Counted from the stretch's first letter, positions 2,626 to 39,691 are shown. The stretch is 41,418 nucleotides of DNA from Patescibacteria group bacterium (GCA_038063775.1 JBBTUK010000009.1:21379-62796), one strand, 5' to 3'. Notes: generated from the sequence alone by a model not told the origin. A program made the numbers and translations.

Positions 2626-2654
2626 TTGACCAAATCGGCAATAGCTGATAAGCT
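2626..2654 (+). promoter_or_regulatory. candidate sigma70-type promoter TTGACC-N17-TAAGCT
   Basis: The -35 box begins with the right-hand TTGA flank of the element. It lies 25 nt upstream of the 2679 ATG. Confidence 0.4.
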
Positions 2655-2678: not shown

Positions 2679-3026
2679 ATGAGCCTCATAATCCGAATTT
2701 TGGCCAATTCCGCGGCTATTTGGGCCGCTAACCGGCTTATTCCGGGCTTCGTTTTTACCGGCACCTATGTTGAACTTTTCATCGCTGGAGCTGTTTTGGG
2801 AATAGTTAATGGCTTGGTCGGACCGATTTTGAAGCTAATTTCCTTTCCGATAATTTTCCTGACCTTGGGACTTTTCAGCATAGTGATCAACATATTCCTA
2901 TTATACCTGGCAGCCAGTTTTCTCTCCACTCTTCATATCCAGAGCCTTGGCGCGGCTTTTTGGGGAATCATTATCATCAGCCTGATAAACAATTTAGTGA
3001 CCCATCTTAGCAAACAAAACGATTAG
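2679..3026 (+). CDS. small 4-TM membrane protein, YvlD/DUF360 (phage holin family 4)-like
   Basis: 115 aa and highly hydrophobic, with four predicted helices. The family assignment comes from the overall pattern only. Confidence 0.6.
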   Translation: MSLIIRILANSAAIWAANRLIPGFVFTGTYVELFIAGAVLGIVNGLVGPILKLISFPIIFLTLGLFSIVINIFLLYLAASFLSTLHIQSLGAAFWGIIIISLINNLVTHLSKQND

Positions 3027-3416: not shown

Positions 3417-5021
3417 GTGCTATTGATTGGCTCCCTCGCGGCTTGGGGATTGTTTTTCTACTATTCAAAAACCAAAGCCCTTCCGGCTTATGGCGGAGAA
3501 TATATCGAAGGCATAGTCGGACAGCCCCAGCACATCAATCCGGTCATCGCTGCTTCCAACAATGCCGACGACAATCTGGCGCAAATAATTTATAGTGGTC
3601 TTTTGCAATATGACGGGCAGGGCAATCTTCGGAATGATTTGGCAGAAAGCTATGAAATTTCCGACGATAAGACTTTGTATACCTTTCACCTCAGGAAAGA
3701 CGCGCTCTGGCATGACGGCCAATTTTTGACCGCTCAAGATGTTTTGTTCACAATAAATTTGATAACCGATCCGGCCTACAAAAGCCCTTTGCGCGGTAAC
3801 TGGCAGGGAATTGAAACAAATTTAGTTGATGATCATACGCTCACCTTCCAGGTTAAAAATCCTTATGTCGGAATGCTCAACAACCTGACTTTCGGCATTT
3901 TACCCAAGCACATTTGGGAATCAACCACGCCAGAGAAATTCCCTCTGTCCGATCTCAACTTGGAACCAATTGGATCGGGGCCCTATAAATACAGCGCTTT
4001 CCAGAAAGATTCCAGCGGGAATATAATTTCTTATAAACTGGCTGCCAACCCGGTTTACTACCAGGAAAAGCCATTCATCACAAAGCTGGCTTTTGATTTC
4101 TATCCGGATGAAGATTCAATATTGGAGGCTTACAATAAAAAGGAGATTATGGGCATCAGCGGTTTATCGCCCCAAAAAGTTTCCAGCATTAAGCTGGAGC
4201 AAAGCACTTTTCTGCACAAATTTAACATCCCGAGATATTTCGCAGTTTTTATAAATCAAACAAAGAGCCTGCCGCTGACTAGCGATGAGGTCAGGGAAGC
4301 TCTTTCCTATGCGACAAACAAACAGGAAATTATTGATACGGTTTTAGGCGGCAATGGAAACCCGATTGATTCACCGATTTTACCGGGCATGGTCGGCTAT
4401 AAGGATGATCTGGAAAAAAGATCTTTTGATCTGGAAAAAGCCAACAAAATTTTGGATGATAATAGTTGGGTGCGCGGAGAAGACGGTATCCGGGCGAAAA
4501 ATAATGTTTTTTTGGAAATAAACATGTTCACGACAGACTGGCTGGAATTAGAACAAACGGCTGAATTGCTCAAAACTCAATGGGAGAAGATTGGAGCCAA
4601 AGTCAGTGTCAACGCCCTTTCCATATCCGACATCCAGCAAAACTATATCCGGCCCAGGGAATATGACTCTCTGCTTTTCGGCCAAGTCCTGGGAGCCGAC
4701 CCTGATCCGTATTCCTTCTGGCATTCAGGGCAAAAAAGGGATCCGGGCCTTAATTTGTCTCTTTTTGGAGATAACAAGACGGACGCCTTGATTGAAAAAG
4801 GCCGGATCGAATTTGATGTTGAAAAAAGAGCCGAACTATACCGGGAGTTCCAGCAAAATGTGAACGAGGAGATTCCGGCCATTTTTCTTTACAGCCCAGA
4901 TTACATTTACCCGGTCAACAAAAAAGTCCAGGGAATCGACGTGCAAAACATCATCTCTCCCGCCAGACGCTTTTCAGACATCAGCCATTGGTTCATCAAA
5001 ACCAAGAGGGTTTGGAAATAA
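3417..5021 (+). CDS. ABC transporter substrate-binding protein, family 5 (peptide/nickel type)
   Basis: 534 aa with an N-terminal membrane anchor. Its length and motifs fit OppA/DppA-like family-5 SBPs. It uses a GTG start, and no canonical start codon lies further upstream in frame after the stop at 3282. Confidence 0.8.
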   Translation: MLLIGSLAAWGLFFYYSKTKALPAYGGEYIEGIVGQPQHINPVIAASNNADDNLAQIIYSGLLQYDGQGNLRNDLAESYEISDDKTLYTFHLRKDALWHDGQFLTAQDVLFTINLITDPAYKSPLRGNWQGIETNLVDDHTLTFQVKNPYVGMLNNLTFGILPKHIWESTTPEKFPLSDLNLEPIGSGPYKYSAFQKDSSGNIISYKLAANPVYYQEKPFITKLAFDFYPDEDSILEAYNKKEIMGISGLSPQKVSSIKLEQSTFLHKFNIPRYFAVFINQTKSLPLTSDEVREALSYATNKQEIIDTVLGGNGNPIDSPILPGMVGYKDDLEKRSFDLEKANKILDDNSWVRGEDGIRAKNNVFLEINMFTTDWLELEQTAELLKTQWEKIGAKVSVNALSISDIQQNYIRPREYDSLLFGQVLGADPDPYSFWHSGQKRDPGLNLSLFGDNKTDALIEKGRIEFDVEKRAELYREFQQNVNEEIPAIFLYSPDYIYPVNKKVQGIDVQNIISPARRFSDISHWFIKTKRVWK

Positions 5022-5079: not shown

Positions 5080-5190
5080 CCCAGTAGTGATCCGCCGAAA
5101 GTCCGATTGATTACTACTGATTAAACTAATAAAGCTACTAACTTTTCAATATATTTTCTGCCGTTAAAAAATAGGCGGACTACTACTGGG
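5080..5190 (+). repeat. palindromic MITE-like element, subfamily A variant (111 bp), flanked by TATG/TATG
   Basis: Arms are cccagtagtgatccgcc ... ggcggactactactggg. The TATG flanks are at 5076-5079 and 5191-5194, and the second contains the ATG of the next gene. Confidence 0.8.
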
Positions 5191-5191
5191 T

Positions 5192-6214
5192 ATGAAAAAT
5201 CTTTCGAGTCTGGATAAGAGTAATTTTAGACAAGTTATCATTGATTTCCCCAAGCAGTTTGAGCAGGGCTTTAAATTGGCAAAGGGCATAAAAATTAAAG
5301 GGCAATTCAATTCCTTAGTTGTTTCCGGCATGGGTGGATCTTCCTTGCCCGTTGATGTTTTGAAAATTTATTTGAAATCGCTTTATCGGAAAAATCCCAA
5401 AGAAAACAAACTGTTCACAGTATTTCAAAATCGCACTTACTCTCTTCCCCGCGAAGCCTATTACGGCGGACTTAATTTTATTTCTTCCTATTCCGGAACA
5501 ACCGAAGAAACTATTTCATCTTTAAGGGAAGCAATAAAAAACGAACTGCCGATTGTCGGATTTACATCGGGCGGAAAACTGGCCGAGCTCTGCCAGAAAA
5601 ACAAAATTCCCTGCGTAATATTTCCCAAAGGGATCGAGCCCCGCTCTGCTACCGGATATTTCTTCGCCTCAATGCTACAAGTTTTGGCTAATGCCGGAAT
5701 GATTGAAGATAAAAGCCGGGAATTAATAGCTCTGTCAAAAAATCTGCGGAAAGCTGTTTTGGAACTGGAGCTGGAAGGCAAAAAGATCGCCCAAAAACTC
5801 TTCGGAAAAACGCCCGTTATATACGCCCCCGCCAAGTTCGGAGCGCTGGCGATGATTTGGAAAATAAAAATCAACGAGAACGCCAAAACGCCGGCTTTTT
5901 ACAATGTCTATCCGGAACTCAATCACAACGAAATGGTCGGCTTTACTCTGCCACAAGGAAAATTCCATATCATAACGCTTATGGATAAAAATGACCACCC
6001 GCAAAATATCAAGCGGATGAAAATAACTGCCGCATTGCTTAGAAAAAAGGACATAGAAACAAATCTCATTGAAATGACTGATAAAAATATGTTTGACACT
6101 CTTTTTTCAACGCTTCTTCTCGGCGACTGGGTTTCCTATTACCTGGCTCTTCTCTACAAGCAAGACCCCGGCCCCGTCAAAATAGTAGAGGATCTGAAAA
6201 AACTGCTGGCTTAA
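5192..6214 (+). CDS. bifunctional phosphoglucose/phosphomannose isomerase (SIS domain)
   Basis: 340 aa with the SIS-type motif VVSGMGGSSLP. The architecture matches the archaeal/bacterial PGI/PMI family. Confidence 0.8.
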   Translation: MKNLSSLDKSNFRQVIIDFPKQFEQGFKLAKGIKIKGQFNSLVVSGMGGSSLPVDVLKIYLKSLYRKNPKENKLFTVFQNRTYSLPREAYYGGLNFISSYSGTTEETISSLREAIKNELPIVGFTSGGKLAELCQKNKIPCVIFPKGIEPRSATGYFFASMLQVLANAGMIEDKSRELIALSKNLRKAVLELELEGKKIAQKLFGKTPVIYAPAKFGALAMIWKIKINENAKTPAFYNVYPELNHNEMVGFTLPQGKFHIITLMDKNDHPQNIKRMKITAALLRKKDIETNLIEMTDKNMFDTLFSTLLLGDWVSYYLALLYKQDPGPVKIVEDLKKLLA

Positions 6215-15102: not shown

Positions 15103-15131
15103 ATTATACACGATATCAAGGATTGTGTCAA
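15103..15131 (-). promoter_or_regulatory. consensus sigma70 promoter TTGACA-N17-TATAAT
   Basis: The minus strand reads TTGACAcaatccttgatatcgtgTATAAT. The TTGA of the -35 box is the left flank repeat of the GIY-YIG element. Confidence 0.7.
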
Positions 15132-15417
15132 CCCCGCACTAACTTTCGTTCAAAGACTTTTTGATTCTTCTTCTTAATTGCGCCCAGGCTTGTCCAAATT
15201 GCTTTATTTGCTTTTCTCTTTCTTTTGCGTCCCACTCGGATAAATACGCTTCATAATACATGAGTTTCCAGATGTGTCCTTTTGTAGAAAAAGAATTTCC
15301 CTCATTGTGGTCAAAAAGTCTTTTCCGCAAGTTACTACTATATCCATAGTATAGCTCCTTGCGCTCATTTCTCAGGACATAAAAATAATGCATACAATAA
15401 CGAAAGTTAGTGCGGGG
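15132..15417 (-). mobile_element. 286-bp element with perfect 19-bp terminal inverted repeats carrying a GIY-YIG ORF, flanked by TCAA/TCAA
   Basis: The inverted repeat ccccgcactaactttcgtt (15132-15150) pairs with aacgaaagttagtgcgggg (15399-15417). The TCAA flanks are at 15128-15131 and 15418-15421. The ORF fills 255 of the 286 bp. Confidence 0.75.
15139..15393 (-). CDS. GIY-YIG nuclease family protein (single catalytic domain, COG2827/UPF0213-like)
   Basis: 84 aa: MHYFYVLRNERKELYYGYSSNLRKRLFDHNEG...YYEAYLSEWDAKEREKQIK, matching the GIY...YIG...R...H/N...E pattern. The stop and last four codons lie inside the inverted repeat. Confidence 0.85.
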   Translation of the reverse strand: MHYFYVLRNERKELYYGYSSNLRKRLFDHNEGNSFSTKGHIWKLMYYEAYLSEWDAKEREKQIKQFGQAWAQLRRRIKKSLNES

Positions 15418-17793
15418 TCAAGTGGCCGTTAGCGTCATACCAATGGAATAGCTGTCCGCTTGTTGCTGGGCCGGTATATCCTGGGTCAGCGCCACGCCCG
15501 TAAAGTCCCAGTAACAGCCAAAGGAGGTGGTGGACGTTAGAAGAGTTACACTGTTGCCCGCGTCAAAATAGGCAGCTGATCCTTTGGATGGTGAGACGGC
15601 GCCGCAACCCCCCTCCGGCGTTATTGTTCCCGCGCTGGGATCCACCCTTAGCCGGCCGTTAGCCGCCGTGTCATTGAAATCATAATTATAGGTTGCGCCT
15701 TGCCAAAGAGTCGAGGCGCCGCCGGTCGCTGCAATCGTAAGGTTCCAGTTTCCATTAGCTGTAGTATTGGTCAATCGAATTTTCTGGCTGGCCACGCCGA
15801 GCGTTCCAGCGGAGGTCTGTCCCACCCAGTCGAACGTTTCGGCGGAAAAAGAAACGGACGGACTGCCCACCGGTGTACCGCCCGAATCCACGATGTCCAC
15901 TGACAGCGTACCCGCAGAAAGCGTGATGGTCCCGGAAGAATAATCATTCACTTGGGAATTCACTCCGTCACTGACCAAGCCGTAGACATAATAGCTGCCC
16001 GCCGACATGCCGGCCGTATCCCAGGAACAAGTCGCTCCCGTGCCTTCGCCCGCCGAGGCGCAAGCACCCGTAATGGCCGTACCGTCCAGACCCGAACCAT
16101 TGGAATCCCAATAAAAGACCGCGTTAACGATGTTGTCAGAATCAGCCAAATCATAAGTGATGTTATACAGAGTGCCGATGGGCACGCTGTCACTCACCCC
16201 ATCCGGCTGGCTGACGGTGAGCGTCGGCCGGGCGTTGATGGTCACCACTCCCGGTGAATAGTCGCTGACTTCAGTGTTGACCGTGTCATTGACATCCCGG
16301 CCGTAAATATAATAAGTGCCGGGCGAGACGCCGGTCGTGTTCCAGGCGCAAGTGCCGCCCGAGGCTTCGCCCTGGTTCTGGCAGGCGGCAATGGAAGTGC
16401 CGTTGAGCCCCGTACCATCCGTGTCGTAATAGAAATCCACGGTAACCGTGCTGTCGGTGTCGGCCAGATTGTAAGTTATGTAATTATAAGTGCCGTCCTG
16501 GGCGATGGTATCACCGGTGCCGTCAGGCTGAGTGACAGTTAAAGTCGGCGCGTCGTTGATCCGGATCCGGCCGGTTGAAACATCAACGACATCCGGATTC
16601 ACTCCGTCATTGGCCACGCCATAAATATAGTAATACGTACTGAGACTCATGCCCTCGCCAAGAGGGCTGAAGGAACATGTTGCGTTGGTTCCCTCAATTT
16701 GGTTTTGACAGCTTGAGATGGCCGTGCCCCCGGCTCCGTTGCCGTCCGTTTCATAGTAAAAATCGGCGGTAGCGGTTCCCGCGTCGGCCAAGTCATATTG
16801 GATCTGGTAATTGCCTCCGTCCGCTACGTCCGTGTCCGAGGCTGGATTATCCACCGTGACGGTCGGCGGAGTATCTGCATAAGGTCTTAAAGCCAAGGTG
16901 ACCGCCGTCCACGAATCGCTTGTGGTGGTCGTGCCCCCACCGGCAAATGCCGCCGGATCATAGGCGCCGGAAGACCAGGTCGTATACCCGGCTCCGACCA
17001 TGCCGTCTTGGGTGTCATTCCCATTTGCCGCGCGGAAATCAGTGAGATATGACGCGGTGTAATTGCCGCCCGTTGAGCCGGATCCGGCGCCGGCTACATA
17101 AATCCACGCTCCGGAGGAAGTGGGCGTAATCGCCCCCGGATTTACAACCCGAGTATTTATCGCTCCGGCAGTGACTGCCGCGACATCAAGGGGCGTGCCT
17201 GCATCAACATTCCGGAACACATGAACAGACCAGGCGCGGCCGCCAGACGCGTCGCCGCCCGCGAGAATCACCGAGGTTTCCGGCGTCCCCGGCATAAACC
17301 GATACGCCACTCGGAGATTTGAGTCGTAAGAGTCGTTCTGATACAGCTCCGACCCGGCCAGTGTGTAGGCCGTTCCCCCACTATTATTGATCGTCAGCGC
17401 CTTGTTGGCTGTGTCCCCATTGGAAAACGCGACAATGACCAGATCGTCGGCCGCTGGCGTTGAAGCACTGCCGTTGGTGAGCGAAAAATTAACCGTCGTG
17501 TTGCCGCTAACACCGGCAGAGCTGCCCACCTGGCCTCCCACATAGGATACTGCCGCCAGAGCGGTGTGAATCCTTAACTTTTCCGGCAAATCCCGGATAG
17601 ACGCGTATTTATCCACGATGTCCGAACCGCTATCTTTTTGCGTAAGCCAAATTCTGTCCACGATTCCCCGGGTGCTGATGTAGGAATCTACCAGGGTCTT
17701 TACGAGATAAAAAGAGGCGTTGGAAAAAACCAGTCCTGTAATTACCAGAAATACTACCAGGAATCTGAATATTTTTCCGCTTCGTTTGCCCAT
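15418..17793 (-). CDS. large membrane-anchored surface protein: N-terminal TM, unknown ~280-aa domain, 3 tandem ~105-aa repeats, C-terminal WxL-like module
   Basis: 791 aa. The C-terminal 164 aa (GTLSVDIVDSGGTPV...NWNLTIAAT...CYWDFTGVALTQDIPAQQQADSYSIGMTLTAT) are paralogous to the two small proteins downstream. The TGA stop lies within the TCAA flank of the GIY-YIG element. Confidence 0.8.
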   Translation of the reverse strand: MGKRSGKIFRFLVVFLVITGLVFSNASFYLVKTLVDSYISTRGIVDRIWLTQKDSGSDIVDKYASIRDLPEKLRIHTALAAVSYVGGQVGSSAGVSGNTTVNFSLTNGSASTPAADDLVIVAFSNGDTANKALTINNSGGTAYTLAGSELYQNDSYDSNLRVAYRFMPGTPETSVILAGGDASGGRAWSVHVFRNVDAGTPLDVAAVTAGAINTRVVNPGAITPTSSGAWIYVAGAGSGSTGGNYTASYLTDFRAANGNDTQDGMVGAGYTTWSSGAYDPAAFAGGGTTTTSDSWTAVTLALRPYADTPPTVTVDNPASDTDVADGGNYQIQYDLADAGTATADFYYETDGNGAGGTAISSCQNQIEGTNATCSFSPLGEGMSLSTYYYIYGVANDGVNPDVVDVSTGRIRINDAPTLTVTQPDGTGDTIAQDGTYNYITYNLADTDSTVTVDFYYDTDGTGLNGTSIAACQNQGEASGGTCAWNTTGVSPGTYYIYGRDVNDTVNTEVSDYSPGVVTINARPTLTVSQPDGVSDSVPIGTLYNITYDLADSDNIVNAVFYWDSNGSGLDGTAITGACASAGEGTGATCSWDTAGMSAGSYYVYGLVSDGVNSQVNDYSSGTITLSAGTLSVDIVDSGGTPVGSPSVSFSAETFDWVGQTSAGTLGVASQKIRLTNTTANGNWNLTIAATGGASTLWQGATYNYDFNDTAANGRLRVDPSAGTITPEGGCGAVSPSKGSAAYFDAGNSVTLLTSTTSFGCYWDFTGVALTQDIPAQQQADSYSIGMTLTAT
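15913..16869 (-). repeat. three in-frame tandem ~315-bp coding repeats (aa ~309-627)
   Basis: The repeat units are PTLTV(T/S)QPDG...Y(N/D)LAD.D....V.FY(Y/W)D..G.G..GT.I..C......G..C.W.T.G...G.YY.YG...D.VN, each with two conserved Cys. Confidence 0.8.
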
Positions 17794-18831: not shown

Positions 18832-18907
18832 CCCGGTAGTGAAATTTTGACCAATTTCCTCCGGGAGGAAATTTTTATATTATTTAAGTCAAAATTCTAC
18901 TACTGGG
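18832..18907 (+). repeat. palindromic MITE-like element, subfamily A (76 bp), flanked by TATG/TATG
   Basis: Arms are cccggtagtgaaattttgac ... gtcaaaattctactactggg, with an internal hairpin aatttcct-ccgg-aggaaatt. The TATG flanks are at 18828-18831 and 18908-18911, and the second contains the trpS ATG. Confidence 0.85.
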
Positions 18908-18908
18908 T

Positions 18909-19919
18909 ATGAAAAGGATTTTTTCCGGCATTCAGCCGTCAGGCAACTTGCACCTGGGCAATTACCTTGGGGCCATCAAAAACTGGGTCAAGCTTCAAAA
19001 CGAGTATGACTCTATTTTTTGCGTGGTGGATCTCCACGCCATTACTGTTCCGCAAGATCCGGAGGAACTCAAGAAAAAAATCATCGAAGTGGCCAAAATA
19101 TATTTGGCCGCCGGCATAGACCCCAAAAAATCGGCGATTTTCATCCAATCGCATGTCCCCGAACACGCGGAGTTGGCGTGGATTTTGAATACTTTGGCCA
19201 AGATTTCCGAAATGGAACGAATGACCCAATTCAAGGATAAATCGGCCAAGAATAAAGAGGGCGTTGGTATGGGACTGTTCGATTACCCAGTGCTGATGGC
19301 CGCCGATATTCTTCTTTACGATACGCAAGTCGTCCCGGTCGGCGAAGACCAGCTGCAACACATTGAAATAACCAGGACATTGGCCAAAAGATTTAATACT
19401 CGTTTCGGCGAAACATTTGTGATTCCCAAAGCTTATTATATGGAAAATGAAGGAATGCTTGCCCGCCAAAGCCTTGGCGTCGGCGGGAGGATTATGGGAC
19501 TGGATGATCCAGCTAAAAAAATGAGCAAGTCGGCCGAGTCGGAATACAATTACATCGCCCTTACGGATTCCGAAGAAGCGGTGCGCAGAAAAATCAAAAA
19601 GGCCGTGACTGACTCCGGAACCGAAATAAAATATGCTGATGATAAACCGGCACTTAAGAATTTGATAAATATCTATTCTCTCTTGTCCGACAAAAAACCG
19701 CAGGAAATTGAAAAATTATATAAAGACAAAGGATACTCTGAATTTAAAACTGACTTAGCTGAAGTAATTATAAATTTCCTGAAACCTTTTCAGGAAAAAT
19801 ATAACGCTCTCTCGGACGAAGAAGTTCTAAAAATCCTCCGGGAAGGCGCGGAAAAAGTTCGTCCGCTGGCTAATAAAAAACTGGAAGAAGTAAAAAATAA
19901 AGTTGGATTTATTTTGTAA
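18909..19919 (+). CDS. trpS: tryptophan--tRNA ligase
   Basis: 336 aa: IFSGIQPSGNLHLGNYLGA (HIGH region) and KMSKS (KKMSKSAES). Confidence 0.93.
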   Translation: MKRIFSGIQPSGNLHLGNYLGAIKNWVKLQNEYDSIFCVVDLHAITVPQDPEELKKKIIEVAKIYLAAGIDPKKSAIFIQSHVPEHAELAWILNTLAKISEMERMTQFKDKSAKNKEGVGMGLFDYPVLMAADILLYDTQVVPVGEDQLQHIEITRTLAKRFNTRFGETFVIPKAYYMENEGMLARQSLGVGGRIMGLDDPAKKMSKSAESEYNYIALTDSEEAVRRKIKKAVTDSGTEIKYADDKPALKNLINIYSLLSDKKPQEIEKLYKDKGYSEFKTDLAEVIINFLKPFQEKYNALSDEEVLKILREGAEKVRPLANKKLEEVKNKVGFIL

Positions 19920-21421: not shown

Positions 21422-22510
21422 ATGAAAATAGGAATCGTGGGGCTCCCCAATGTCGGCAAATCAACGCTTTTTAAGGCGCTGACCAAGGTCCCGGTGGACA
21501 TCAACAATTATCCCTTTTGCACCATCGAACCCAATGTTGGCATTGTTAAGGTTCCTGATGCGCGCTTGGAAAAGCTTGCTAAGTTGTCGAATTCCGCCAA
21601 GATCATTCCGGCCATCGTGGAATTTGTGGACATCGCCGGACTGGTTAAGGGTGCGTCTCTTGGCGAAGGCTTGGGTAATAAATTTCTGGCCAACATCCGC
21701 GAGACGGACGCTATTGTCCAGGTAGTTCGGGTTTTCGAAAATGAAACTATCACGCATGTCCATAATAAGATTGATCCGGAACACGATATTGAAATAATCA
21801 ATATGGAGCTGATTCTGGCTGATCTGGAGACGGTCCAGAAAACACTGGTACGCTTAGAAAAAGAGGTGCGCGGTAATAAAAAAAGCGCTCAAGAACAATT
21901 GAGCGCGGTAAAAAAAATCAAAGAAACTTTGGAAGCGGGAAAACTGGCTAACGAAACTTTCTTAGACTACGCGGAAGAAAACACCAAGCAAATCGTGCGA
22001 GAAATTTCGCTTTTGACTATAAAACCGTTTTTGTATGTTTATAATGCTTGCCCCGTTAAATCCGACGAAGTCGGTGCGGAGCTATTTAACGGGGTTTATT
22101 ATAAAATTCCTGAAAAATTAAAAGCGAAAAAGAACTTTGTTATTTTAGATATTAAAATTGAAGAAGAGCTGATCGAAATGTCAAAAGAAGAAGCGGCGGA
22201 AATGGGAATCAAATCCAACATTGATTCTTTGATCGTGGAAGCTTACAAGCTGCTCGGACTGATTACCTTCCTTACGACTGGAGAAGACGAAACTCGCGCC
22301 TGGACCATCAAAAAAGGCTCTTCAGCCCCTTTGGCCGGCACGGCTATTCACAACGATTTCAAAGATAAATTCATCCGCGCCGAAGTCATCCAGTGGGATA
22401 AACTTTTGGAGGCTGGCTCTTGGGGCAAGGCCCGCGAATTGGGAACGCTCCGGACAGAAGGGAAAGATTATATTGTCCAAGATGGTGATGTTGTAGAATT
22501 CAAAATCTGA
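21422..22510 (+). CDS. ychF: redox-regulated ATPase YchF
   Basis: 362 aa: MKIGIVGLPNVGKSTLF (G1), DIAGLVKGAS, and a C-terminal TGS-like region ...RTEGKDYIVQDGDVVEFKI. Confidence 0.93.
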   Translation: MKIGIVGLPNVGKSTLFKALTKVPVDINNYPFCTIEPNVGIVKVPDARLEKLAKLSNSAKIIPAIVEFVDIAGLVKGASLGEGLGNKFLANIRETDAIVQVVRVFENETITHVHNKIDPEHDIEIINMELILADLETVQKTLVRLEKEVRGNKKSAQEQLSAVKKIKETLEAGKLANETFLDYAEENTKQIVREISLLTIKPFLYVYNACPVKSDEVGAELFNGVYYKIPEKLKAKKNFVILDIKIEEELIEMSKEEAAEMGIKSNIDSLIVEAYKLLGLITFLTTGEDETRAWTIKKGSSAPLAGTAIHNDFKDKFIRAEVIQWDKLLEAGSWGKARELGTLRTEGKDYIVQDGDVVEFKI

Positions 22511-22517
22511 TGGGGAT

Positions 22518-22553
22518 GCCTGCCTCGTAGCAAGCCCTGCTTTGCTACTGGGG
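22518..22553 (+). repeat. conserved hairpin motif, copy 1
   Basis: gcctgcctcgtaGCAAgccctgctttgCTACTgggg. A second copy lies at 40638-40673, with covarying stem positions. Confidence 0.6.
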
Positions 22554-22579
22554 TGATTGAATTTAAGATTTAAACTTGA

Positions 22580-22652
22580 CCCCGTAGTAGATTTTCGGCT
22601 TTTATTTTTTTCAGCCCCGCCGCGGCGGGGCGACCGAAAATTCACTACGGGG
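22580..22652 (-). repeat. palindromic MITE-like element, subfamily B (73 bp), flanked by TTGA/TTGA
   Basis: Arms are ccccgtagtagattttcggc ... accgaaaattcactacgggg, with an internal hairpin gccccgc-cgcg-gcggggc. It is approximately the reverse complement of 2554-2625. Confidence 0.85.
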
Positions 22653-22681
22653 TTGACTTCCGCTAAATAGTCTGCTAAACT
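22653..22681 (+). promoter_or_regulatory. candidate promoter TTGACT-N17-TAAACT
   Basis: The -35 box begins with the right-hand TTGA flank of the element. It points into the structured region 22688-22830. Confidence 0.55.
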
Positions 22682-22687
22682 ATATTC

Positions 22688-22830
22688 AACCTAGAAAGTC
22701 CCATGATTCTCTCGCTTTGGTCCGCTGAAGTTTTAACGGAAGCGACCCTCGACCCGCCTACGCTATTGCTTCGGCGCGGTAAGATAAGAGAATATAATCC
22801 GCAAGGAGAGCTTTCTTTGGGGACTTTTTT
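22688..22830 (+). ncRNA. unclassified structured RNA candidate (~140 nt) upstream of rpsF
   Basis: A long-range closing stem pairs agaaagtccc (22693-22702) with ggggacttt (22819-22827), followed by a T6 run. An inner ctctc/gagag pairing, a GC-UUCG-GC tetraloop hairpin and a ggtccgct...agcgacc hairpin are also present. I recognise no family. Confidence 0.4.
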
Positions 22831-22836
22831 AATCCT

Positions 22837-22919
22837 ATAACCCAAAACCTGGAGCCCAAAACCTACAAAAATCTGATTTTAAAATAAATTAGGTTACGGG
22901 TTATGGGTTACGGGTTACG
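22837..22919 (+). promoter_or_regulatory. leader module: C/A-rich segment + AT spacer + 4 tandem GGTTAYG heptamers, ending 8 nt before the rpsF ATG
   Basis: ataacccaaaacctggagcccaaaacctac...ggttacgggttatgggttacgggttacg. It is homologous to the module upstream of recA (26726-26829, minus strand). Confidence 0.6.
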
Positions 22920-22927
22920 TGAATTAA

Positions 22928-25183: not shown

Positions 25184-25200
25184 AAGAAGATTTGTATTTA

Positions 25201-25304
25201 CCCCTACACCAACTTTTACAAAACAAGATAGAAGGTAGGAATTTTATAAAGAGATTTGTTCGCTTTATGATTTGCGGATTGCGTTGTAAAAGTTGGTGTG
25301 GGGG
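25201..25304. repeat. palindromic MITE-like element, subfamily C (104 bp), flanked by TTTA/TTTA
   Basis: Arms cccctacaccaacttttacaa ... ttgtaaaagttggtgtggggg match at 20 of 21 positions. The TTTA flanks are at 25197-25200 and 25305-25308. The arm resembles the GIY-YIG element inverted repeat (CCCC.CAC.AACTTT). Confidence 0.75.
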
Positions 25305-25311
25305 TTTAGTT

Positions 25312-25455
25312 TTAGAAAAGTCCCAAGTTTGAGAAAAGCGTGAGCGTCATCAGAGGCATCAGCGCCACCAGAATTTCTATCCCGGTCTGTTCGGCTTGTT
25401 TGGCCTCCTGTTCTCTCTTTTCGCACTCCGGACATTCGTGCTTTGGCTCATCCAT
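25312..25455 (-). CDS. 47-aa protein with a CPEC motif and C-terminal TM helix, unknown function
   Basis: MDEPKHECPECEKREQEAKQAEQTGIEILVALMPLMTLTLFSNLGLF. The ORF-track start at 25542 lies inside the promoter -10 box, so I trimmed it to ATG 25455. Confidence 0.45.
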   Translation of the reverse strand: MDEPKHECPECEKREQEAKQAEQTGIEILVALMPLMTLTLFSNLGLF

Positions 25456-25540
25456 ATTTTTGTGTTTCCCCGCCAAGGCGGGGTAATTAATAATTAAAAA
25501 GAAAAAACGGGCATTCACCCGCTTTTTACTTTGTATACCC

Positions 25541-25569
25541 ATTATACACTATTTTCACCCTCAAGTCAA
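25541..25569 (-). promoter_or_regulatory. near-consensus promoter TTGACT-N17-TATAAT
   Basis: The minus strand reads TTGACTtgagggtgaaaatagtgTATAAT. The TTGA of the -35 box is the flank repeat of element 25570-25704. Confidence 0.65.
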
Positions 25570-25704
25570 CCCCGTAGTAGATTTTCGGCTCTTGCAAAGA
25601 TGTTAAGCTGCAGCTGACAGATATACTGCAAGGTAAAATATTTTATAATTTTTGTGGTATTTTTTAAGTCCCACTGGCGGGACGGCCGAAAATTCACTAC
25701 GGGG
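25570..25704 (-). repeat. palindromic MITE-like element, subfamily B long form (135 bp), flanked by TCAA/TCAA
   Basis: Arms are ccccgtagtagattttcggc ... ggccgaaaattcactacgggg, with an internal hairpin gtccc...gggac next to the GTGA arm. The right flank lies 2 nt from the recA stop. Confidence 0.8.
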
Positions 25705-25710
25705 TCAAGT

Positions 25711-38803: not shown

Positions 38804-39547
38804 CTAATCCATTTTATTCCAGTCAAAGTTCCAGGGGTCGTCCTTTCTTCCAGGAGCTATTTGGCTATGGCCTAGAACATATTTTATTTTATATCGCCCT
38901 TTTATATATTTTAGCAGATTATTGAGAGAATCATATTGTTTATCGGTAAAATTGCCATCCTTGGTGTTCATGAGCTCAATACCGATAGAAGTCTCATTAA
39001 CATTGGTCCGGCCGTCCGGCAAACTACTCACTCCAGCATGATATGCAATGTTTTTTTCCTCGACCAGACGATAGATCGTTCCGCCCCGGTCAACAAGATA
39101 GTGGGCAGAAACTCCATAGCTTTCATATTCCTTGATAAGCCCCTTGACGCTGAAAGGGTCGGCTCCCAAAGCGTCATAGGATGAATGGATAATTATAGTG
39201 TCAATGGTCCGACCGGCAGATTTTTCAAATCCGCTGGATAGAAGCTTGTCAACAATCGCGAATTTTGGGGACGAATTATTAGTGTTTTTCGGCGGTTCGG
39301 TCAGTACTGGTTCTTTTTTAATTTCGCCCTCCGTTTTTTCCGGAATTTTTTCCGGTTCGGGAATAATTTCTGCATTCTCGCTTTCCGGCTGGCTGTTTGA
39401 TAAAATATCGTCTGTTTGATAATTATTTTCCAGTATTATTTCTTTCTTGCTCGTGGCGGAAAATAACGGCAGCCAAAAAACGCCGGTTATGATAACCAGT
39501 AGCGCCATTGCTATTGCTATTGTTTTATAGTTCAGATATTTTTTCAT
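38804..39547 (-). CDS. N-acetylmuramoyl-L-alanine amidase (Amidase_2/PGRP family), membrane-anchored
   Basis: IDTIIIHSSYD...AHYLVDRGGTIYRLV...AYHAG...IGIELMN...GHSQIAPGRKDDPWNFDW. I set the start at ATG 39547 (MKKYLNYKT) because the ORF-track start at 39592 lies inside the repeat 39549-39691. Confidence 0.85.
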   Translation of the reverse strand: MKKYLNYKTIAIAMALLVIITGVFWLPLFSATSKKEIILENNYQTDDILSNSQPESENAEIIPEPEKIPEKTEGEIKKEPVLTEPPKNTNNSSPKFAIVDKLLSSGFEKSAGRTIDTIIIHSSYDALGADPFSVKGLIKEYESYGVSAHYLVDRGGTIYRLVEEKNIAYHAGVSSLPDGRTNVNETSIGIELMNTKDGNFTDKQYDSLNNLLKYIKGRYKIKYVLGHSQIAPGRKDDPWNFDWNKMD

Positions 39548-39548
39548 T

Positions 39549-39691
39549 CCCGGTAGTAGAATTTTGGCGTTTACACATGCTAGATTGACCAAAATTCCAT
39601 GAAATTAAAAATTTAAATTAGTTTACCGATTATACATGTCATATTTTTAAAGTTTTTTTCCAAAAAACTTAGCCGAAATTTCACTACTGGG
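39549..39691 (-). repeat. palindromic MITE-like element, subfamily A long form (143 bp), flanked by CATT/CATT (AATG on the gene strand)
   Basis: Arms are cccggtagtagaattttggc ... gccgaaatttcactactggg, with an internal hairpin aagtttttt-gg-aaaaaaactt next to the GTGA arm. It lies between the traX-like stop (TAG, then 1 nt) and the amidase ATG. Confidence 0.8.

Follow-up and report, generated by a model that had tools for sequence, protein, structure and literature searches.

Correia elements duplicate a TA dinucleotide and carry their own −35 and −10 sequences together with a site for integration host factor (IHF), so that they create promoters (PMC10969869); inversion of the element has also been reported (review, PMC10969869). 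We describe here three miniature elements, E1, E2 and E3, which lie in a 41,418-nucleotide stretch of DNA (“the window”) from a Patescibacteria group bacterium (GCA_038063775.1, JBBTUK010000009.1:21379-62796), a Moranbacteria genome sequence of the candidate phyla radiation (CPR) obtained from the Hainich groundwater metagenomes. Each is bracketed by two copies of TTGA, one of which begins the −35 box of a predicted promoter. We consider it probable that E1–E3 are non-autonomous transposable elements of the miniature inverted-repeat type (MITEs) belonging to a family of tiny TTGA-inserting elements that encode a GIY-YIG nuclease, and that their position reflects targeting together with retention.

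The IS200/IS605 elements use an HUH tyrosine transposase, have no terminal inverted repeats, make no duplication and insert in one orientation; the RAYTs are HUH enzymes as well, and REPINs show neither target duplication nor specificity for a promoter box. Insertion sequences with 4-bp duplications are found in the IS5, IS1380 and IS701 groups, all of the DDE type, and the smallest autonomous insertion sequences measure about 600–700 bp. Homing enzymes such as I-TevI and the phage Seg proteins have a long DNA-binding domain and one cognate site in the homologous gene, and involve neither inverted repeats nor a duplication. We know of no catalogued insertion-sequence family that uses a GIY-YIG nuclease. 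Open reading frames (ORFs) of the GIY-YIG type are on record from CPR rRNA genes, where they lie in insertions that are not introns (Brown 2015, cited by Tsurumaki et al., 2024, PMC11270868); searched by term, the latter paper showed neither inverted repeats nor palindromes, its sole use of “target site” concerns target recognition by LAGLIDADG enzymes, and the passages matched say nothing of miniature derivatives or of insertion outside rRNA. Neither the promoter-box class nor the miniature elements of the window is dealt with there. The open literature, subscription-only papers being outside the search, yielded no account of repeat-bounded GIY-YIG elements or of MITEs targeting −35 boxes, nor of such repeats, duplications or miniature derivatives.

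Miniature elements at predicted −35 boxes

E1 (2554–2625, 72 bp), E2 (22580–22652, 73 bp) and E3 (25570–25704, 135 bp, 2 nt downstream of the recA stop codon) are bounded by two arms, A (CCCCGTAGTGAATTTTCGGC) and B (CCCCGTAGTAGATTTTCGGC), which form imperfect terminal inverted repeats of about 20 bp. From left to right, E1 consists of arm A, an internal hairpin (GTCCCGCC-GTG-GCGGGAC) and arm B. E2 lies inverted with respect to E1 and consists, in the same reading direction, of arm B, an internal GC hairpin (GCCCCGCC-GCGG-CGGGGC) and arm A, and the orientation of E3 relative to its own promoter is that of E1. The TTGA copies lie at 2550–2553 (distal) and 2626–2629 (proximal) for E1 and at 22576–22579 (distal) and 22653–22656 (proximal) for E2, all on the plus strand; those of E3 belong to the minus strand and read TCAA on the plus strand, at 25566–25569 (proximal, the TTGA of the minus-strand −35 box) and 25705–25708 (distal). 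Being direct repeats outside the inverted repeat, they resemble a target-site duplication. The proximal copies of E1 and E2 are the first four bases of the predicted promoters TTGACC-N17-TAAGCT (2626–2654, plus strand), 24 nt upstream of an ORF (2679–3026, PF04020), and TTGACT-N17-TAAACT (22653–22681, plus strand), which has a TGn extended −10, scores 9/12 matches in a promoter scan and precedes a conserved leader and rpsF. The promoter beside E3, TTGACT-N17-TATAAT (25569–25541, minus strand), scores 11/12 and is kept in two related genomes (L122 and L124), and a fourth, TTGACA-N17-TATAAT (15131–15103, minus strand), stands beside the GIY-YIG element of the window.

These features had been proposed in a sequence-only reading of the window, and every coordinate and flanking 4-mer that it gave for E1–E3 was confirmed, as were its four promoter sequences, present as written. 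It had also held that the orientation of the element relative to the promoter is not fixed; besides the inverted E2, our census includes five elements running A-to-B and about nine running B-to-A. The distal copy does, as it claimed, recreate TTGACC reading into the element. This distal TTGACC was considered as a second complete promoter and rejected, there being no TAnnnT at 16–18 nt in arm A or B; a TATTGT 16 nt from the distal TTGACC of the window GIY-YIG element abuts the ATG and is not conserved in L038 or L040.

As single strands, E1–E3 fold into a 9-bp stem, a conserved 2×2 mismatch and a stem of 8–9 bp, with energies of −17 to −25 kcal/mol (z = −5 to −7); E2, with an 8-bp second stem beyond its 2×2 internal loop, reaches −24.3 kcal/mol (z = −6.2). 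The arms have one conserved 2-nt mismatch, and the internal sequence differs from copy to copy. Miniature elements of this kind span 57–148 bp, within the length of MITEs, and have no coding capacity; six-frame translations of them revealed no remnant of a GIY-YIG ORF. The arm pattern has 15 matches in the window against 1.5 expected. A search of one genome per species with the pattern CCCSGTAGTRRATTTTCGG gave 30 matching loci, mostly in Moranbacteria, Parcubacteria, Saccharibacteria, Doudnabacteria and Spechtbacterales, in which paired arms delimit elements of 57–316 bp; single-arm matches in GC-rich genomes outside the CPR (such as L006, L019, L023 and L025) were treated as chance. Copies thus occur at unrelated loci, three of them in the window and six in one single Moranbacteria genome, and in several CPR phyla.

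The sequence-only reading had suggested looking in relatives for empty sites with a single TTGAC, and such sites were found for two of the three elements. Between ychF and rpsF, three genomes (L115, L116 and L118; YchF 79–83% identical) are without the element and have a single TTGA in the place of the distal copy: L115 reads ..TAAGC TTGA CTCCC.., and the window reads ..TAAAC TTGA[73 bp]TTGA CTTCC... In the promoter, TTGACT, CTG and TAnAnT are invariant across the window and these three genomes, in all of which the downstream leader, with a terminator-like hairpin at its end, is conserved too. The site downstream of recA is empty in L122 (RecA 89% identical), where a single TTGACT-N17-TATAAT is found. 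Given these empty sites with a conserved promoter, the promoters pre-date the insertions. The recA-downstream site is occupied differently in other relatives: L124 (RecA 89%) has a complete GIY-YIG element between TTGA copies at the exact nucleotide position of E3, with a repeat (CCCCGCACTAAC / CCCCGCACTAACTTTTGTT) unlike that of E3, and L120 and L121 (RecA 96%) have a GTAGT-type miniature element with the same left junction as E3. One orthologous −35 box has thus been struck independently by different subfamilies.

A census was made of the window, CPR genomes and metagenomes, in which every element with a perfect TTGA duplication was curated (12 miniature and seven GIY-YIG elements). A −10 was scored as TAnnnT 16–18 nt after TTGAC, and background rates were taken from the same loci with the elements masked. 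The TTGA flanks and promoter adjacency first claimed for a few copies extend to further ones in other genomes: with those of the window included, all of the perfect-TTGA elements (19/19) read TTGAC-N16-18-TAnnnT from one copy, all have C at position 5, and 18/19 have A or T at position 6. In the background, TAnnnT at this spacing follows 34% of intergenic TTGACW (13/38), 13% of intergenic TTGA (37/288) and 6% of genic TTGACW (9/143); counting 18 independent events, binomial p is 4e-9 against the intergenic TTGACW rate and 9e-17 against the intergenic TTGA rate. Upstream of TTGA, GG at −3/−2 is found at 7/18 occupied sites versus 1/43 free promoter-like sites (p = 5e-4). When 478 kb was scanned without bias for inverted repeats flanked by any identical 4-mer, TCAA/TTGA ranked first. 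Tandem re-insertion in the rebuilt site is seen in L014, L029, L045 and L112, and a copy nested inside another element in L030 has the non-canonical duplication TTA.

That the palindromes adjoin promoters by coincidence, or are promoter-associated operators, we regard as scarcely credible: the window has only three copies and the TAnnnT criterion is lenient, but the idea is refuted by the empty sites in relatives, and against it stand the 19/19 set beside 6% in genic TTGACW and the occurrence of the same family within rRNA and tRNA genes and at the 5′ ends of coding sequences.

A preference for TTGACW would not by itself predict so strong a −10 association, so that either a retention bias or guidance by a host factor is also needed. 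Guidance would mean that TTGAC alone is not what is read, and that a host factor on the −35 box, such as the RNA polymerase holoenzyme or sigma region 4, or the DNA distortion due to its binding, directs the cut to the upstream edge of the hexamer. A correctly spaced −10 at every occupied site, against 13/38 of free intergenic TTGACW, fits this, since a −10 at a variable 16–18 nt would hardly be sensed by a small nuclease; both orientations are found at an asymmetric target, which suggests that the asymmetric part is not read by the element's own machinery. We nevertheless judge guidance unlikely, because occupied sites are enriched for GG on their upstream side, as expected if the sequence itself is read, and the 84-residue protein shows no sign of an interaction domain.

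Retention could alternatively be the work of positive selection, if the elements were exapted regulatory modules whose specificity is TTGA or looser and whose copies away from promoters have been deleted; possible services are insulation from upstream read-through, a hairpin for RNase III or termination of the upstream gene, and regulator binding. Strong hairpins speak for such a role, as do the position of elements directly after upstream stop codons (recA, a 791-aa gene and ychF), the conservation of the 2×2 arm mismatch across phyla and an orthologous insertion kept in two genomes (L008 and L024); the nested TTA copy of L030 hints at relaxed specificity where selection is absent. On the other side, the sites are empty in close relatives that function nonetheless, copies do not agree in their internal sequence, identical nucleotides were hit independently, and the GG enrichment argues for an insertion preference; no T-run follows the hairpin in either orientation, for which reason a role as intrinsic terminator was also rejected. 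Taken together, exaptation as the explanation seems to us improbable.

Some further observations concern the surroundings of E2 and E3. A conserved non-coding region (22682–22927) between the E2 promoter and rpsF, present also in L115, L116 and L118, has the layout AGAAAGTCC..CTCGC..GATAAGAG..AATCCGC..GCGGATTTTTTT, with a terminator-like hairpin at its end; Rfam holds no match for the region transcribed after this promoter at either the gathering or the E-value threshold, and the region may represent a small RNA or the leader of the rpsF operon. ychF has its 3′ end in duplicate, with a live end GTTGTAGAATTCAAAATCTGA (VVEFKI-stop, 22490–22510) and a relic GTGATTGAATTTAAGATTTAA (VIEFKI-stop, 22553–22573) that occupies the place of the relatives' stop codon and ends 2 nt short of the −35 box. 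The two are separated by a 30-bp palindrome (CCTCGTAGCAAG..CTTTGCTACTGGG) like a decayed GTAGT-type element, and an old insertion in the coding 3′ end may have supplied the new C-terminus. Within about 15 nt of the recA-downstream promoter, the window, L122 and L124 have a conserved hairpin and T-run (AAAGCGGGTGAATGCCCGTTTTTT; 25502–25527, minus strand), preceding a small conserved ORF that starts near 25455; this hairpin might act as an attenuator, belong to a short RNA, or be the terminator of recA, lying past the promoter.

A candidate autonomous GIY-YIG element

The window GIY-YIG element (15132–15417, minus strand) is 286 bp long, has a perfect 19-bp inverted repeat (CCCCGCACTAACTTTCGTT) and contains as its sole gene an ORF of 84 aa (15139–15393, minus strand), the stop codon of which lies inside the repeat. 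It sits on its promoter as the sequence-only reading had claimed, with TCAA on both sides: the proximal copy (15128–15131, TCAA on the plus strand) gives the first four bases of the minus-strand −35 box of promoter 15131–15103, and the distal copy (15418–15421, minus strand) contains the TGA stop of the upstream 791-aa gene (15418–17793). The protein matches PF01541 (E = 1e-11); the GIY-YIG catalytic residues Y15, G17, R25, H29, E48 and E60 are invariant, and among solved structures the protein is closest to 1ZG2 and 1YWL, both UPF0213 proteins, and next to SLX1.

A metagenome scan with this protein returned at least 586 relatives, of which 80 loci were kept for analysis; the wider protein family, taken up to E = 0.001, divides at 50% identity into 2,156 clusters, for the most part of 80–110 aa. 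At 72 of the 80 loci the ORF is bounded by its own inverted repeat, often with 16/16 perfect matches, in units of about 270–390 bp, most of them 280–320 bp. The ORF starts 14–40 nt from one tip in most units and ends in or near the other, and the repeats and the protein diverge together. With no space for a second gene, and with repeats and protein co-diverging, the gene and its repeats appear to form one unit. The combination of TTGA and a predicted promoter is found in seven metagenomic GIY-YIG elements and in L124, and in all eight the gene is co-directional with the promoter and directly follows an upstream gene. This orientation, the upstream gene and, in the window, the presence of its stop inside the distal copy suggest that the GIY-YIG gene is expressed by read-through.

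Co-directionality (8/8) would also be expected if the elements spread by restriction and ligation, with sticky ends carrying the target, a model that predicts a fixed orientation; the miniature elements, however, divide five against about nine, and read-through explains the orientation of the gene equally well.

A candidate partner of E1–E3 is seen in a Saccharibacteria genome (L017), where an 88-aa GIY-YIG ORF lies inside arms A and B of the E1–E3 type (3569–3884), with the 4-bp duplication GGAA; this protein weakly matches TIGR01453 as well as a homing endonuclease family of PHROG. As the miniatures hold no ORF remnant, the link between them and the GIY-YIG elements rests on shared repeats, duplication length and target, and from these the GIY-YIG element is likely the autonomous form of the whole family.

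It is also conceivable that a conventional DDE transposase mobilises the miniatures in trans, the GIY-YIG gene being a passenger or a secondary invader. DDE transposition is characterised by inverted repeats and a short duplication of fixed length, both orientations occur at a non-palindromic target, and GIY-YIG nucleases are not known to join DNA. We find this quite improbable in view of the 30 arm-matching genome loci, in none of which a transposase gene was found between such repeats, and of the 72/80 diverse GIY-YIG genes that are tightly bounded by, and co-diverge with, repeats of their own.

Other targets of the family

Among the 72 repeat-bounded GIY-YIG elements, 26 lie in 16S or 23S rRNA genes. 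Many occupy recurrent positions, usually with no duplication (L048, L054–L056, L058–L060, L064, L066, L068, L070, L072, L074, L104, L106, L111 and others). By eye the positions fall at the tips of helices, among them the helix-25 region of 23S rRNA, a classical intervening-sequence site. Inspection by eye also suggests insertions in RNase P RNA at three loci (L069, L108 and L114), with no confirmation from Rfam for L069.

About nine elements are situated at the 5′ ends of tRNA-Ala or tRNA-Val genes, where they make a 5-bp duplication and insert at gene positions 5–9 (L061, L080, L081, L094, L095, L101, L105, L112). The start of the tRNA according to ARAGORN falls within the last 4–5 nt of the element, the tip GGGGC replacing the GGGC of the acceptor stem, so that a full tRNA gene is rebuilt downstream; in L112 a second element stands in tandem in the rebuilt site.

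TGTG is duplicated within TGTGGATAAC at four loci (L035–L037, L039), two of which represent the same place, giving three independent loci. The site, TGTG followed by GATAAC, matches the DnaA-box consensus TTATCCACA, and the elements have the 19-bp repeat of the window element and proteins 65–79% identical to that of the window. A guide-like tetranucleotide predicting the target, as in IS608, was considered and rejected: the 19-bp repeats are identical in the TTGA and TGTG classes, and the only position that qualifies, a synonymous Leu codon, varies without regard to the target. A DnaA-box-like site is also bound by a helix-turn-helix protein, a point in favour of guidance by a bound protein, but such a model does not cover the start codons, the 5′ ends of tRNAs and the tips of rRNA helices.

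Start codons are the place of a WATG-duplicating miniature subfamily, with four related elements in the window: 1193–1268 (CATA on the plus strand) at uvrB, 5080–5190 (TATG on the plus strand; arms CCCAGTAGTGATCCGCC) at the ORF 5192–6214, 18832–18907 (TATG on the plus strand) at the ORF 18909–19919, and 39549–39691 (CATT on the plus strand) at an ORF whose start is at 39547 on the minus strand. Three of them (those at 1193, 18832 and 39549) have arms of the CCCGGTAGTAGAATTTTGAC type. The downstream copy of the duplication supplies the ATG of the gene, and the hairpin stands directly before it. The L017 element lies inside the 5′ end of tmk (thymidylate kinase), where its right end gives a new in-frame ATG, and the resulting 14-residue N-terminal extension overlaps the 3′ end of the GIY-YIG ORF.

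A TTTA-class miniature element of 104 bp (25201–25304), with repeats of the GIY-YIG-element type (CCCCTACACCAACTTTTACAA) and duplication copies at 25197–25200 and 25305–25308, begins 7 nt past the stop codon of the small ORF 25312–25542; TAAA/TTTA duplications recur in L049, L080, L102 and L107. A TATA-duplicating subfamily with arms CCCYGTAGTAGATTTTCAA forms tandem arrays in L014 (7340–7594) and L029 (4026–4162); the last TATA copy of L014 reads TATACT, 7 nt before an ATG, and the subfamily may sit on −10 boxes. In each class there is an intact signal on one side, rebuilt by the duplication and sometimes by the element tip as well.

Proposed mechanism and comparison with known systems

E1–E3 are short, non-coding and multi-copy, have terminal inverted repeats and a duplication with empty sites, and share their repeats with a candidate autonomous element elsewhere; they represent a new family of MITEs, unusual in having a target that is specific to the −35 box. 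In the explanation that we favour, the full-length form would be an element of about 290 bp, with terminal inverted repeats of about 20 bp around one gene for a GIY-YIG protein of about 84 residues, of the UPF0213/SLX1 type. It would insert at TTGA and duplicate these four bases, its preferred site, (GG)nTTGAC, being a partial copy of its own abutted ends, GGGG-TTGA-CCCC. The sigma-70-type −35 hexamer TTGAC(A/T) would be the main extragenic place of this preferred sequence in these genomes. The duplicated bases would then be the first four of the hexamer, with the remainder of the promoter following the downstream copy; as the duplicated TTGA begins the hexamer, the promoter would be rebuilt exactly, with the element just upstream of it and outside the transcript. 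Such insertions would be near harmless, and presumably neutral, in a genome with almost no spare DNA, where few harmless positions exist besides the upstream edge of a −35 box. An imprecise deletion of the element would destroy the promoter, so that a copy in an essential signal could be lost only by precise excision. The cuts would be made by the GIY-YIG nuclease, and the joining step would need host repair or ligation, since enzymes of this class only hydrolyse DNA.

Targeting and retention together could yield the all-or-none association with promoters; we infer their relative weight, and would put the excess mainly down to retention. The sequence-only reading had left the choice between a machinery that targets TTGA and the survival of insertions that regenerate a functional motif, and both halves find support: targeting from the hits of two subfamilies at the same nucleotide, from the GG enrichment and from tandem re-insertion in the rebuilt site, survival from the −10 association beyond TTGACW preference and from other subfamilies that rebuild signals such as start codons and tRNA 5′ ends.

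Several points weigh against this explanation. TTGACW preference and intergenic survival predict a −10 at about 34% of the sites, and it is observed at 100%. An 84-residue hydrolytic nuclease has no known way of joining DNA, and mobility itself is deduced from the sequence comparisons. The hairpins of the WATG class survive inside transcripts, which weakens the notion that elements are tolerated only outside them. Near-identical repeats and proteins 77–79% identical occur with TGTG (L035–L037), so that the target class does not track protein or repeats. The duplication is mostly 4 bp, is 5 bp in L027 and the tRNA class and is absent in rRNA helices, which is unusual for a single transposase. 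Finally, the repeat of the window GIY-YIG element differs from that of E1–E3, whose cognate partner was seen only in the Saccharibacteria genome.

The minimal GIY-YIG element family appears to be undescribed. A broader claim is that it constitutes a new class of transposable element, the autonomous form of which, at about 290 bp, would be the smallest known, with an 84-residue GIY-YIG nuclease as its only protein, in place of a DDE, HUH or recombinase enzyme, and with subfamilies that insert in short, unmutable functional signals, rebuilt by duplication and tip; this we advance tentatively, with belief falling slightly short of doubt. If confirmed, it would add a new class of mobile-DNA enzyme and a self-contained unit of less than 300 bp, well below the smallest autonomous insertion sequences. 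It would also mean that mobile DNA can persist in the streamlined genomes of the CPR by landing on host signals that cannot be changed and rebuilding them. In organisms that cannot be cultured, the elements would serve as markers of genuine promoters and start codons and of the 5′ ends of tRNAs, and a tiny nuclease with a short, defined and possibly switchable target is a possible tool.

The protein type and the bacteria are the same as in the GIY-YIG insertions of CPR rRNA genes (PMC11270868), and 26 of the 72 bounded elements found here are in rRNA genes. Earlier work remarked that those insertions do not resemble homing, and the present family offers a concrete, testable alternative. The likeness to GIY-YIG homing endonucleases lies in the catalytic domain and in selfish spread into conserved sequences that are hard to mutate. 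The likeness ends there, as the 84 residues comprise the catalytic domain only, with no separate DNA-binding domain, and in place of one cognate site with no duplication the TTGA class is found at unrelated promoters with a 4-bp duplication. Family relatives lie in 16S and 23S genes and may be compared with rRNA intervening sequences, stem-loop insertions at helix tips that RNase III removes from the transcript; E1–E3 themselves are not in rRNA.

With IS200/IS605 elements and their PATEs (for example ISDra2, target TTGAT), E1–E3 share a strict tetra- or pentanucleotide target, very small size and hairpin ends. They differ in having repeats that extend to the tips, in occurring in both orientations and in lacking TnpA, the only gene of full-length elements being that for GIY-YIG; a terminal tetranucleotide carried by an IS200/IS605-like element could mimic a TTGA duplication in sequence, but the two orientations argue against it. 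The REP/REPIN systems with their RAYTs resemble the family in combining one small repeat-flanked enzyme gene with many short, palindromic, non-coding intergenic derivatives. The Correia elements of Neisseria (CREE/NEMIS), the archetype of bacterial MITEs, are, like E1–E3, short, palindromic and multi-copy, mostly intergenic and immediately upstream of genes, and have terminal inverted repeats, RNA hairpins and a fixed short target duplication. Unlike them, with their 26-bp repeat and TA target, E1–E3 duplicate TTGA and have repeats of unrelated sequence, and inside them no TAnnnT stands at the spacing of a promoter; the −35 box is there before they insert and is rebuilt by the insertion, and a candidate autonomous GIY-YIG partner exists.

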